Shown here: in pieces, positions 9,933 to 34,327 of the stretch
How the letters are laid out: each line of letters starts with the position of its first letter
Numbering within the stretch: position 1 is the first letter of the stretch
Origin: Ignavibacteriota bacterium
GTDB taxonomy: Bacteria; Bacteroidota; Ignavibacteria; UBA10030
Length of the DNA stretch: 64,000 nt
Reading direction: 5' to 3'
Assembly (NCBI GenBank): GCA_963701295.1
Contig: OY969585.1
Coordinates: forward strand, 2,464,001-2,528,000
Translations under genes and position numbers: made by a program
The notes under the pieces: model-generated
Database searches by the model: none
Seen by the model: the letters and a program-made list of their open reading frames with translations, nothing else
Told to the model about the DNA's origin: nothing

Positions 9933-10331
9933 ATGAAGAAAGAACATACAATCGTCAGAAAGCTTCTTGCAACTCAAAAATGGTCAGAGGAAACCGCACG
10001 TCTAGCCTATCGTGCTCGCTACAAATGCGAGTATTGCGGCTTGGATCTACTTTCTTCTCCAGATATATACAGATTATGGCAAGTAGATCATATCGTTCCA
10101 AAATCTAAAGGCGGTTCAGACGCCATTTCAAATAAAGCCACTGCTTGCATGCCGTGCAACATTTACTTCAAGCGTAAGTGGAATCCAAGAAATAATGTCG
10201 GCCCCAAAGCCACGCGCAAACAATTGATTTTAGCAGTTCAACAATATGTTCGAGAAAAGAAAGCGGAAACAGAGAAAGAACTAATTGAAGTCCATCAAAT
10301 TGTCGGATACAATAAAAAGCTTGCGCCCTAA
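9933..10331 (+). CDS. Cassette 10: HNH endonuclease
   Basis: CEYCG...DHIVPKSKGG..N...ACMPCN. Confidence 0.9.
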   Translation: MKKEHTIVRKLLATQKWSEETARLAYRARYKCEYCGLDLLSSPDIYRLWQVDHIVPKSKGGSDAISNKATACMPCNIYFKRKWNPRNNVGPKATRKQLILAVQQYVREKKAETEKELIEVHQIVGYNKKLAP

Positions 10332-10339
10332 CCAGTTTA

Positions 10340-10655
10340 AAAAGGAAAGAGTCAAGTAAATAATATACTCCCGATGCGTTCCGCGCAATCGGAATGCAGA
10401 GTTCTTTAACATTAAGGACGACCGAATCCGTGCCGATGCCGCGTTCTCTATCGAATAGACAGGCGATTACCAGAGCAATGCCGTCCAAACCAGTTTACGG
10501 ATTTACATTCACTCATTGAAGAAACGATGGTGAAAGCGTATCTCGTCGAGCGAGATGTTCCAGATATTACCACGGCACAGCGCACTCTCTTCCCAATCCA
10601 GCGAACGATCCCGACGCAGTCGGGATCAGTTAGGAAAGCGGGCTTGAGAGGCGCG
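10340..10655 (-). ncRNA. Predicted bridge/seek RNA, copy 1 (ends approximate)
   Basis: Guide-like matches to the attC target (CCUAAC, CGCUGG) and to the circle junction (UGGUAAUAUC, UAAACUGG), each pair flanking a hairpin and closed by a stem. Confidence 0.75.
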
Positions 10656-11631
10656 GCCACTGCTGAGATTTATGCCGGCTGATCGGCTGACCTTTGAGAC
10701 CTTTATATATTGTTTTGTTTTTTAAGACATAGTAAACAATCTTCGCAAGTTCTTTGGCAACGACGGTTCGCGCAGTCGCCTCATTGGAGCGACGAGCTAA
10801 TTTCTGGAATAAGCGTTTGTATTCCGGATAGTACTGAATAGCATGAACAGCGGCATCGGAGAAGGCGATTTTGAGATACTTATTGCCGTCTTTGCTGGAG
10901 CGATGGTGCACAGAGCGATTGGAGTTATCGGCAGCAGGGACGAGTCGGCAGTAAGAGACAAACTTTTTATCGGAGTCGAATCGTTCAATGCCGTCGATTT
11001 CAAGATACACCGTGAATGCGGTGAGCTTGCCGATACCTGGAATGTGCAAGAGCCGTTGAATATCGTCGTTGGGAATCAGCACAGGATGGAGAGATTTTTC
11101 CAGCGAGAGGATCTGAGCAGTAAAAGTGTCTCTGGTATGTTGCAAGACAGCAAGTTGAAAACGATACGGATCCGGAACAGAGCCGTTAAATTTGGTCTGA
11201 ATACTGTAGAGACGCAGAAGACTGGCAGTTCGTTGCTGAACGAGCCGTAGACGAATACGCATGGTATCGCGCAGGCCGCGTAGTTCTCGGCTGATTTTGT
11301 GAGCCCGTGGAATGAGTCCCTGTCGTAAGAGAAGAGCAAGAGTTTGCGAATCGACTTTATCTGTTTTAACTTTAGCATAACTGATGGCTTTGAGATATTT
11401 GGCGTGAGCAAGGACAAGCTCGATGCCGTGATCGCTGAGAAGATCGTTGAGCCAGTACCATCCTGTGGTAGACTCAACGACTGCGTGATGAGGACCGGGC
11501 AGAGAGTGGAAGTAATCAAGAACACGTTCATTGTTATTCTCGACACGTTGTCGCTTGATGACAGCACCAGTGTCATCAACAGTGGTGATAAAACAATTAT
11601 CAGAATGCAAATCGATACCTGAGTAATACAT
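10630..11631 (-). CDS. IS110-family transposase/recombinase (333 aa)
   Basis: GIDLH, VVES, KTDKVDS, IPGIG..TA, F.S.KKFVSYC.L.P motifs; RBS AAGGAG before ATG 11631. Confidence 0.95.
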   Translation of the reverse strand: MYYSGIDLHSDNCFITTVDDTGAVIKRQRVENNNERVLDYFHSLPGPHHAVVESTTGWYWLNDLLSDHGIELVLAHAKYLKAISYAKVKTDKVDSQTLALLLRQGLIPRAHKISRELRGLRDTMRIRLRLVQQRTASLLRLYSIQTKFNGSVPDPYRFQLAVLQHTRDTFTAQILSLEKSLHPVLIPNDDIQRLLHIPGIGKLTAFTVYLEIDGIERFDSDKKFVSYCRLVPAADNSNRSVHHRSSKDGNKYLKIAFSDAAVHAIQYYPEYKRLFQKLARRSNEATARTVVAKELAKIVYYVLKNKTIYKGLKGQPISRHKSQQWPRLSSPLS

Positions 11632-11888
11632 GGGAATCTCCTTAGATTGTGGATGTTGGTGACCTAGAGAATTATCAATGTACATAATCGGGAGATTCCT
11701 TTTTGGTAATATCCAGCGGCTCAAGCTGACCGGATGAGCGTTGGTGCGTTAAGCATGGCGAGCATAGGTTTCGGTTCTTAATAATAAACTTTTCAGCGTG
11801 AACTTGTTTCGTTTGGTACATTTTGAAAGTATTCAGCGCGGCAGCTTAGCCGCCATCCGTTAGCTGCCACCACAAATAAGAGGATATT

Positions 11889-15688: not shown

Positions 15689-15716
15689 AATAAATAGCTG
15701 CCACCTAACCAGTTTA

Positions 15717-16032
15717 AAAAGGAAAGAGTCAAGTAAATAATATACTCCCGATGCGTTCCGCGCAATCGGAATGCAGAGTTCTTTAACATTAAGGACGACC
15801 GAATCCGTGCCGATGCCGCGTTCTCTATCGAATAGACAGGCGATTACCAGAGCAATGCCGTCCAAACCAGTTTACGGATTTACATTCACTCATTGAAGAA
15901 ACGATGGTGAAAGCGTATCTCGTCGAGCGAGATGTTCCAGATATTACCACGGCACAGCGCACTCTCTTCCCAATCCAGCGAACGATCCCGACGCAGTCGG
16001 GATCAGTTAGGAAAGCGGGCTTGAGAGGCGCG
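15717..16032 (-). ncRNA. Predicted bridge/seek RNA, copy 2 (ends approximate)
   Basis: Same sequence as 10340-10655. Confidence 0.75.
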
Positions 16033-17008
16033 GCCACTGCTGAGATTTATGCCGGCTGATCGGCTGACCTTTGAGACCTTTATATATTGTTTTGTTTTTT
16101 AAGACATAGTAAACAATCTTCGCAAGTTCTTTGGCAACGACGGTTCGCGCAGTCGCCTCATTGGAGCGACGAGCTAATTTCTGGAATAAGCGTTTGTATT
16201 CCGGATAGTACTGAATAGCATGAACAGCGGCATCGGAGAAGGCGATTTTGAGATACTTATTGCCGTCTTTGCTGGAGCGATGGTGCACAGAGCGATTGGA
16301 GTTATCGGCAGCAGGGACGAGTCGGCAGTAAGAGACAAACTTTTTATCGGAGTCGAATCGTTCAATGCCGTCGATTTCAAGATACACCGTGAATGCGGTG
16401 AGCTTGCCGATACCTGGAATGTGCAAGAGCCGTTGAATATCGTCGTTGGGAATCAGCACAGGATGGAGAGATTTTTCCAGCGAGAGGATCTGAGCAGTAA
16501 AAGTGTCTCTGGTATGTTGCAAGACAGCAAGTTGAAAACGATACGGATCCGGAACAGAGCCGTTAAATTTGGTCTGAATACTGTAGAGACGCAGAAGACT
16601 GGCAGTTCGTTGCTGAACGAGCCGTAGACGAATACGCATGGTATCGCGCAGGCCGCGTAGTTCTCGGCTGATTTTGTGAGCCCGTGGAATGAGTCCCTGT
16701 CGTAAGAGAAGAGCAAGAGTTTGCGAATCGACTTTATCTGTTTTAACTTTAGCATAACTGATGGCTTTGAGATATTTGGCGTGAGCAAGGACAAGCTCGA
16801 TGCCGTGATCGCTGAGAAGATCGTTGAGCCAGTACCATCCTGTGGTAGACTCAACGACTGCGTGATGAGGACCGGGCAGAGAGTGGAAGTAATCAAGAAC
16901 ACGTTCATTGTTATTCTCGACACGTTGTCGCTTGATGACAGCACCAGTGTCATCAACAGTGGTGATAAAACAATTATCAGAATGCAAATCGATACCTGAG
17001 TAATACAT
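16007..17008 (-). CDS. IS110-family transposase/recombinase
   Basis: Same protein as copy 1. Confidence 0.95.
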   Translation of the reverse strand: MYYSGIDLHSDNCFITTVDDTGAVIKRQRVENNNERVLDYFHSLPGPHHAVVESTTGWYWLNDLLSDHGIELVLAHAKYLKAISYAKVKTDKVDSQTLALLLRQGLIPRAHKISRELRGLRDTMRIRLRLVQQRTASLLRLYSIQTKFNGSVPDPYRFQLAVLQHTRDTFTAQILSLEKSLHPVLIPNDDIQRLLHIPGIGKLTAFTVYLEIDGIERFDSDKKFVSYCRLVPAADNSNRSVHHRSSKDGNKYLKIAFSDAAVHAIQYYPEYKRLFQKLARRSNEATARTVVAKELAKIVYYVLKNKTIYKGLKGQPISRHKSQQWPRLSSPLS

Positions 17009-17267
17009 GGGAATCTCCTTAGATTGTGGATGTTGGTGACCTAGAGAATTATCAATGTACATAATCGGGAGATTCCTTTTTGGTAATATCCAGCAACTCA
17101 AGCTGACCAAATGAGCGTGTTACGTTAAGCATGGCGTGTAGAGGTTTGGATGTTTAATAATAAACTTTTCAGCATGAACTTGTTTCGTTTTCAGCAACTT
17201 GTGGCTTTTCGTTGCCGCAGCTTAGTTGCCATCCGTTAGGCGGCAATAATAATGAAAGGATTCTATA

Positions 17268-33696: not shown

Positions 33697-33975
33697 TATG
33701 GTGTTCCATTTCTATCTAAAATCAATCCAAACCTGCTAACAAAAAAGTTCAAGAAAGCAGTTAAAAAGTCAAAGCTCAAAGATCAGCGACTTCATTTTCA
33801 TTCACTTAGGCATACTTTTGCAAGCTGGTTGGCACGAAAGGGGACAAGCATTTACGAAATTCAAAAACTTCTCGGTCACTCCGACATTAAAACCACTCAG
33901 ATATACGCCCATCTTCTTCCCAATGAACTACACAATACGGTAGCGAAGTTAGAGGGAATGGTTCCATCCTATTAA
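33697..33975 (+). pseudogene. Tyrosine integrase C-terminal remnant
   Basis: Translates HFHSLRHTFASWLARKGTSIYEIQKLLGHSDIKTTQIYAHL; no start or N-terminal part. Confidence 0.88.
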
Positions 33976-34253: not shown

Positions 34254-34327
34254 GCACCCGTAGCTCAACTGGATAGAGCATCAGCCTTCGGAGCTGAGGG
34301 TTGGGGGTTCGACTCCCTCCGGGTGTA
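34254..34327 (+). tRNA. tRNA-Arg(TCG)
   Basis: Cloverleaf; anticodon arm TCAGC-CTTCGGA-GCTGA; GGTTCGA T-loop. Confidence 0.95.

Follow-up and report, generated by a model that had tools for sequence, protein, structure and literature searches.

Why do all the identical copies of one insertion sequence (IS) in a bacterial genome occupy the same word of an integron attC-like repeat, and what could read that word? The question is raised by a 64,000-nucleotide (nt) stretch of an Ignavibacteriota bacterium (GenBank assembly GCA_963701295.1, contig OY969585.1, forward-strand positions 2,464,001 to 2,528,000), hereafter the window, to which all coordinates refer unless given as genome positions. It carries two copies of an IS110-family element among integron cassettes; the genome, a single 3.64-Mb contig with 42% G+C, holds nine copies at 100% identity and two more at ~81% identity. 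We conclude that the element is of the IS1111 type and that its 3′ part, from the last 11 transposase codons onwards, very probably encodes a predicted bridge/seekRNA guiding site-specific insertion. Such an RNA had been proposed from the letters of the window alone (the original prediction), and as a sequence-based reading it is now well supported by comparison across relatives. The element and the site it interrupts comprise the following features.

10336..11716, minus strand: IS copy A, a 1377-bp body (11712..10336) and, on the left, the CTGG junction (11716-11713); on the right, CTGG lies at 10335-10332
15713..17093, minus strand: IS copy B (genome 2479713-2481089), in the same orientation and at the same position of another attC
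10630..11631, minus strand: transposase gene (333 aa, DEDD/RuvC-like, IS110 family), from the open reading frame (ORF) 11631-10630 and its domain matches
11696..11704, minus strand: left subterminal inverted repeat AAAAAGGAA, which follows an 8-nt extension (ATATTACC) and is complementary to 10339-10347; read directly
10339..10347, minus strand: right subterminal inverted repeat TTCCTTTTT, with AAA and then the junction after it; read directly
11713..11870, plus strand: larger part of the interrupted attC (CCAG...GTTAGC), from repeat comparison
10323-10335, plus strand: R''-side part of the interrupted attC, GCGCCCTAA-CCAG, from repeat comparison

Copies A and B are 100% identical internally, and their flanks part exactly at ...GCTGG|ATATTACC and ...TTTAAACTGG|TTAGG. 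The borders of copy A were set by comparison with uninterrupted attC repeats and, since these carry only a single CTGG, CTGG is the junction shared by both ends. That both copies in the window sit at the same word of an attC, as originally predicted, was confirmed and extends to the whole genome: the flanks part at ...CTGG|TTAGG in 9/9 copies, all inside one word of the repeat family, GTCAGCTTGAG-NNN-CTGG|TTAGG. Insertion took one relative orientation in all nine, with only the junction bases shared and no classical target duplication. In the cassette sense the insertion point is the R'' end of attC, and the transposase gene runs antisense to the cassettes.

The interrupted repeats behave as attC sites of integron cassettes. 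They are ~150 nt long, follow each cassette ORF and bear CCTAAC ... GTTAGC as inverted ends; the fold of one intact copy is an imperfect hairpin (z = -3.46), and an integron integrase (453 bits, cut-off 265) adjoins one array. Integrons in Ignavibacteriae are on record (PMC9024848).

The transposase matched PF01548 (DEDD_Tnp_IS110, 1.8e-16), PF02371 (Transposase_20, 5.7e-18) and the NCBIfam model NF033542, 'IS110 family RNA-guided transposase' (169.8 bits, cut-off 140). The longer non-coding stretch is placed downstream of the gene for the transposase in the IS1111 group and upstream of it in the IS110 group (PMC11187229). Here 294 nt follow the stop (10629-10336) and 81 nt precede the ATG (11712-11632), hence the element belongs with the IS1111 group. 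Its 9-bp subterminal repeats are set in from the ends by extensions of 8 nt on the left and 3 nt (AAA) on the right, CTGG excluded, which is near, though not equal to, the 7 or 6 bp and 3 bp stated for IS1111 (PMC11187229). It is an IS1111-type insertion sequence with an IS110-family DEDD transposase.

What would direct such an element to a single attC word is suggested by the end of the transposase gene and the region beyond it, where the predicted RNA begins with a target-binding domain.

10434..10658, minus strand: predicted bridge/seekRNA, its extent taken from conservation and folding
about 10658-10578, minus strand: predicted target-binding domain, from folding and covariation
10646..10654, minus strand: 5′ strand of the P1 stem, GCGCCUCUC, inside the last transposase codons; pairs with 10580-10589
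10642-10640 with 10594-10592, minus strand: inner part of the closing stem, CCC with GGG; read directly
10629..10634, minus strand: target guide 1, CCUAAC, complementary to the element-sense G|TTAGG right of the insertion point and holding the UAA stop
10607..10627, minus strand: apical hairpin GAUCCCGAC-UGC-GUCGGGAUC, a perfect 9 bp; read directly
10598..10603, minus strand: target guide 2, CGCUGG, in the same sense as the left flank and junction, so that it would pair with the bottom strand
10580..10589, minus strand: 3′ strand of the P1 stem, GAGAG.GCGC, from covariation

The two guides and the perfect hairpin between them had been placed correctly by the original prediction, and the guides do match the two target halves. 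Their structural setting was examined in relatives, obtained by a scan of one genome per species that yielded 78 loci with transposases 43-91% identical. Nearly all are in metagenome-assembled genomes (MAGs) labelled Ignavibacteriota or 'Bacteroidetes', with one in a Gemmatimonadota MAG; the elements at 82-91% protein identity come from MAGs labelled Ignavibacteriota. A strict pattern was fitted by 53 of 79 sequences (the 78 loci and this copy), and 14 of the 26 that did not fit were checked by eye and had the same layout with small differences. The 40 distinct RNAs aligned from these loci share one common architecture.

Across these RNAs the proposed closing of the target loop, GCGC.CUCUC..CCC with GGG..GAGAG.GCGC, is upheld by compensatory changes. 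Six pairs of the P1 stem change on both sides with 96% of cells paired, while the apical hairpin has its sequence replaced and its stem kept (both-side changes in 4/4 tested pairs). Compensation is seen, for instance, at column pairs 15/97 (CG 21, UA 17) and 19/92 (GC 19, AU 13, UA 6). A diverged copy in the same genome already has CUGAC/GUCAG in place of CUCUC/GAGAG and another apical hairpin. Over the whole structure the paired fraction of cells is 89.8%, whereas sliding the partners by 1-3 columns leaves no more than 42%. Both-side changes affect 132 cells, compared with 38.9 in shuffles, and none of 500 shuffles attained the observed score.

If the words flanking the hairpin are guides, they should change with the DNA they read, and the covariation suggested with the original prediction was indeed found for guides as well as stems. 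Element ends in the relatives were located from the right-end word and the left-end motif, and 47 of 49 rows were used (the two omitted being one that lacked a left end and one whose flank was cut), taking one row per distinct RNA type (34 types) with 10,000 re-pairings. Guide 1 agreed with the right flank at 95/170 positions (shuffled mean 73.8, reached 0/10,000) and guide 2 with the left flank at 130/204 (mean 99.7, 0/10,000). Guide 2 and left flank pair up as CGCUGG/CGCTGG, CGCCUGG/CGCCTGG, GACUGG/GACTGG (in L074) and, with 8/8 matches in the group of L055, UUGCAUUG/TTGCATTG. The right flank opposite guide 1 reads GTTAGG.., GTTAGAA in L074 and GTTATGTGC in the L055 group (9/9), while L066, a sibling of L055 in the same MAG, has GTTAGGTGC in guide and flank alike.

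The same approach was applied to two further words, proposed to read the joined ends of the element itself. Donor guide 2 agreed with the right end at 231/238 positions (mean 196.5, 0/10,000) and tracks it through six variants (AAACTGG, AAAATGG, AAAGTGG, AAAGAGG, TAAGCGG and AAAGATG). Donor guide 1 agreed with the left end at 74/170 positions (mean 66.9, reached 21/10,000), its position 6 switching A/T together with the left end between two groups. Both donor words stand where they had been placed and both covary with the ends, the first weakly. Within each element guide 2 and donor guide 2 have, at their 3′ ends, only the last one or two bases (GG or TG) in common, hence the identity of all four CTGG bases in this copy is an extended match and not a four-base core. 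This G-rich core is unlike the CT core of IS621.

Might the 3′ region instead be an ordinary structured untranslated region or terminator, its flank matches being chance or attC remnants? The target domain does appear in single-sequence folds, yet folding beats shuffles only modestly (z = -2.15 and -2.04), which would suit this explanation. Against it, the four guide words, which occur singly in 5.6%, 8.4%, 0.045% and 0.39% of 20,000 shuffles of the 325-nt 3′ region, occurred together in none, excluding chance; the match halves are on opposite strands around a conserved helix, as in the published bridge/seek layout; and the words vary in step with flanks beyond the element, a covariation that contradicts such a reading. 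We therefore give it almost no credence.

A guide RNA would also account for which attC sites are occupied. Among 121 unoccupied attC-like sites TTA is preceded by CCTGG in 55 and by GCTGG in 31, whereas eight of the nine IS copies are in GCTGG sites (Fisher p = 2.6e-4, or 7.9e-4 without one duplicated flank pair). This preference is explained by target guide 2 (CGCUGG), in which one base, the G at 10602, appears to pick the minority subclass (GCTGG as opposed to CCTGG). The guides had been described as aimed at the most conserved attC bases; this is right for guide 1, which reads GTTAGG, but guide 2 reads a variable spacer base and selects a subclass.

The donor words lie in a second domain, whose fold we read differently from the original prediction.

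about 10577-10437, minus strand: predicted multi-loop donor-binding domain, from folding and conservation
10563..10572, minus strand: donor guide 1, UGGUAAUAUC, complementary to G+ATATTACCA (junction base and left end), 10/10 here
10499..10501 with 10559-10561, minus strand: donor inner stem, UCC with GGA; third pair AU in 33, GC in 4, UA in 2 and unpaired in 1 (n = 40)
10490..10497, minus strand: donor guide 2, UAAACUGG, in the same sense as the right end and junction; covaries with the right end
10458..10485, minus strand: hairpin 3 (GACGGCAUU...AAUCGCCUGUC), containing ACGGCA, in the minimum-free-energy (MFE) fold of this copy
10437..10442, minus strand: distal GCGGCA, which likely pairs with UGCCGU (10572-10577); a conserved GAUAG (10448-10452) comes before it

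We lean towards a multi-loop in which the donor guides occupy single-stranded joints, with the GGA/UCC arm and hairpin 3 as arms and UGCCGU (10577-10572) closing on GCGGCA (10442-10437). RNAalifold on a MAFFT alignment of this domain gave almost nothing (-0.12 kcal/mol), and anchored counts were used because the variable hairpins are misaligned there. By these counts the inner stem varies to GGG/CCC and GGU/ACC; hairpin 3 starts at the invariant GG of UUUGG and is formed with different sequences in 35/38 RNAs; and a GAUA(N)..GGCA word follows the proximal word by 21-46 nt in 38/38 RNAs. With the distal word included, the 5′ GCC takes the distal GGC as its MFE partner in 26 of the 40 RNAs; in 13 it pairs with a GGC at the base of the target domain, and in no RNA with the proximal word. 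By eye, the distal stem has changed on both sides together in the most diverged relatives, L015 (UGGCC/GGCCG) and L073 (GUCC/GGAU). Multi-loop donor sites are found in many IS1111 elements (Durrant et al., PMC11208160).

As first drawn, the RNA was 175 nt long (10655-10480), with a simple donor internal loop closed by UGCCGU (10577-10572) and ACGGCA (10484-10479). The six pairs hold without mismatch in this copy, as in the relative L002. In close relatives, however, the partner reads ACGTCA, ACGCCA or TCGTCG or is absent, being lost or changed without compensation in six of eight, and in a distant group the proximal word, UUGCC, is identical rather than complementary to the 5′ strand. The proximal word is instead compensated within hairpin 3, and even when 10665-10470 is folded without the distal GGCA the stem appears in neither the minimum-energy structure nor the centroid. 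We regard the simple loop as very unlikely. With the distal GGCA as closing partner the multi-loop RNA would run to about 10434, some 45 nt beyond the end first proposed (10480-10655), while a start in the same region, near 10658, is still predicted.

The conserved GAUA(U/G) just before the distal GGCA (10448-10452, minus strand) equals the top strand of the junction base and left end and is complementary to the AUAUC of donor guide 1. Another word conserved in the 3′ region of nearly all relatives, AAAGAAC (10401-10407, minus strand), lies 65-100 nt before the right end.

Several points weigh against a guide RNA with two such domains. The guide shuffle tests ignore the kinship of elements and hosts. 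About 20 distant relatives have T as the first junction base where both guides carry G, and two lineages with CCUCAC in place of CCUAAC are still flanked by GTTAG... In the donor domain the distal closing stem is just 4-6 bp and nearly invariant, and the 13 RNAs noted above prefer to pair GCC with the base of the target domain. Donor guide 1, nearly invariant in sequence (its first five bases do not change) and usually matching over just 6-7 nt in relatives, is for these reasons the least tested and weakest of the four guides. No circle joint or empty site was found in contigs of the likely source run and six RNA-library runs, the loose contig ends at 11713 being other attC copies. In peat and wetland metatranscriptome assemblies contigs of relatives (85-96% identity) do cover the 3′ region, but they could be DNA carry-over and cannot show transcription, strand or ends. 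As to the distant relatives with the T (among L019-L077), their guides end in GG while the integrated left junction is TG and the right one TG or GG; the mismatch may reflect resolution of a core heteroduplex or a base that is not read. Separately, RNA-library contigs from two studies (X15 and X17) span exactly 10417-10568 of relatives, which is the donor domain only.

The weakness of donor guide 1 leaves some room for a short seekRNA of ~80-100 nt that reads the target only, the protein recognising the ends through the subterminal repeats and the donor words being kept for structure or promoter. The IS1111 seekRNAs in print have lengths of 70-100 nt, and their analysis concerned target matches (PMC11187229), and AUAUC can also pair with the conserved GAUA(U) inside the RNA. 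Such an RNA would leave unexplained why donor guide 2 follows the right end through all six variants and why position 6 of donor guide 1 switches with the left end, and 93% of IS1111 elements have a predicted bridge RNA with donor loops (PMC11208160). We judge the target-only RNA improbable.

In the bridge/seekRNA reading that we prefer, the RNA would be transcribed, perhaps from a promoter present only in the excised circle, and would bind the transposase. It would pair with both strands of one attC end and with the element's own joined ends: guide 1 (CCUAAC) with the element-sense GTTAGG right of the crossover, guide 2 (CGCUGG) with the opposite strand on its left, and UGGUAAUAUC and UAAACUGG likewise with the circle junction TTTAAACTGG-ATATTACCA. 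Strand exchange would take place at the shared GG. One further feature bears on the promoter.

10350..10355, minus strand: TTGACT, which in the circle would lie 17 nt before the GATATT of the left end

TTGAC[T/C]-N17-GATATT is present in 35 of 38 distinct elements and is predicted to be a junction promoter formed on circularisation. The arrangement recalls ISEc11, for which a junction promoter is cited (PMC11187229).

The predicted RNA begins inside the coding sequence. As had been noted originally, coding and guide information overlap at the transposase stop: the UAA of guide 1 (10632-10630) ends the 333-aa ORF 11631-10630, and in 31 of 38 distinct RNAs it stops, in frame, an ORF at least 300 codons long. 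In the other seven the frames are interrupted upstream and the local tail, QWPR-x-x-(S/N)-P-x-x, is kept, hence the overlap is a family trait. The stop is not indispensable, as two lineages read CCUCAC and lose it. One relative with CCUCAC (L061, 63% identical) has no stop for ~55 codons, and its frame would cross the whole predicted RNA. In the sister copies of this genome CCUCAC lengthens the ORF by four codons.

It is tempting, if doubtful, to see this overlap as functional rather than incidental, the last 11 codons supplying the 5′ strand of the stem and guide 1, and the stop being the UAA with which the guide has to read TTA in the attC core. Were this so, a ribosome that completes the transposase would cover the guide domain of its own transcript and unfold it. 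Translation would then be coupled to RNA folding, loading new transposase on its own RNA in cis and limiting expression, and the C-terminus of the protein would be tied to target identity, since the CCUCAC lineages lose the stop. The literature searched contains no report of a guide overlapping a stop codon, nor of an attC-targeting IS1111 in Ignavibacteriae, leaving aside seekRNA distances given in figures. The term 'stop codon' is likewise absent from the main text of PMC11187229, figures with distances aside. Because the RNA begins inside the coding sequence, searches limited to non-coding ends would truncate such RNAs.

How does the element compare with those already known? An IS1111-attC group, which targets the attC site of integron cassettes, was reportedly described by Tetu and Holmes in 2008 and by Post and Hall in 2009. 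Siddiquee et al. showed seekRNAs experimentally in 2024 for two of its members, ISKpn4 and ISPst6, with that of ISPa25 predicted; IS1111 seekRNAs co-purify with the transposase and have the top-strand match 5′ of the bottom-strand match (PMC11187229). The original prediction therefore overstated the novelty of the system: the element adds a new lineage to a kind of RNA-guided insertion sequence that is already known, and no new mechanism. Like ISKpn4 and ISPst6, it has subterminal inverted repeats and a DEDD transposase whose gene is followed by a long non-coding region, together with a 3′-region RNA (predicted here) whose top-strand match lies 5′ of the bottom-strand match around a hairpin. 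It differs in being chromosomal, with relatives in Ignavibacteriota MAGs rather than on Proteobacterial plasmids or integrons, and in having the first stem strand and first guide inside the coding sequence, whereas the RNAs in PMC11187229 map downstream of the gene.

IS621 of the IS110 group (Durrant et al. 2024, PMC11208160) is similar in having target and donor domains, one guide per DNA strand and a short shared core, and recombination here too would join the circle junction and the target. Unlike IS621, whose RNA is at the left end, the RNA here is at the right end, with its guides in reversed order; the present element also has longer subterminal repeats, and its donor site is likely in a multi-loop. 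Our findings leave the known mechanism unchanged and widen the range of RNA-guided, attC-targeting IS1111 elements to an environmental lineage with chromosomal cassette arrays, far from the clinical Proteobacteria where such elements were first reported, with ~40 RNAs that form a natural series for reading guide changes against target changes.

An Rfam search matched no family except two tRNAs, and a nucleotide search of the plasmid collection with the element gave no match. Since the best transposase identity to any of 72,556 plasmid records was only 34.5%, the transposase likely forms a lineage separate from the IS1111-attC cluster of ISPa21, ISKpn4 and ISPst6. A Klebsiella plasmid match (24% identity) was dropped as an ISKpn4 comparator, its locus not being in an integron.

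The two sister copies at ~81% identity lie outside the window (genome 2408636-2410023 and 2396491-2397732) and have an identical left flank, ..GTTGTTAG; the second diverges past position 1245. Both are probably old copies or duplicates. The last 47-74 nt of the IS right end are also matched, at 82-94% identity and with no transposase gene near, at four isolated places (genome 1810050-1810108, 2384985-2385033, 2382032-2382078 and 3333530-3333603), which may be remnants or the right ends of other elements.

The cassette array extends over 1433-31574, most of the first half of the window, with at least 28 full or partial attC-like repeats of ~150 nt, matching the repeat that the IS interrupts, and small plus-strand ORFs between them. 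The cassette ORF beside copy A (9933-10331, plus strand, 132 aa, HNH-like by eye) ends on the TAA of the attC word CCCTAA|C, and the IS lands 4 nt past it, leaving the ORF intact; the transposase stop sits in the same word, CCUAAC, within the guide. Just past the array end is an integrase-like fragment (33718-33930, plus strand, 61 bits, in a 92-aa frame), with a tRNA gene close by (34254-34327). The genome's one full integron integrase lies ~1.07 Mb away (genome 3566721-3567662), beside another array holding two IS copies, and attC-like repeats are present in at least eight regions of the genome.

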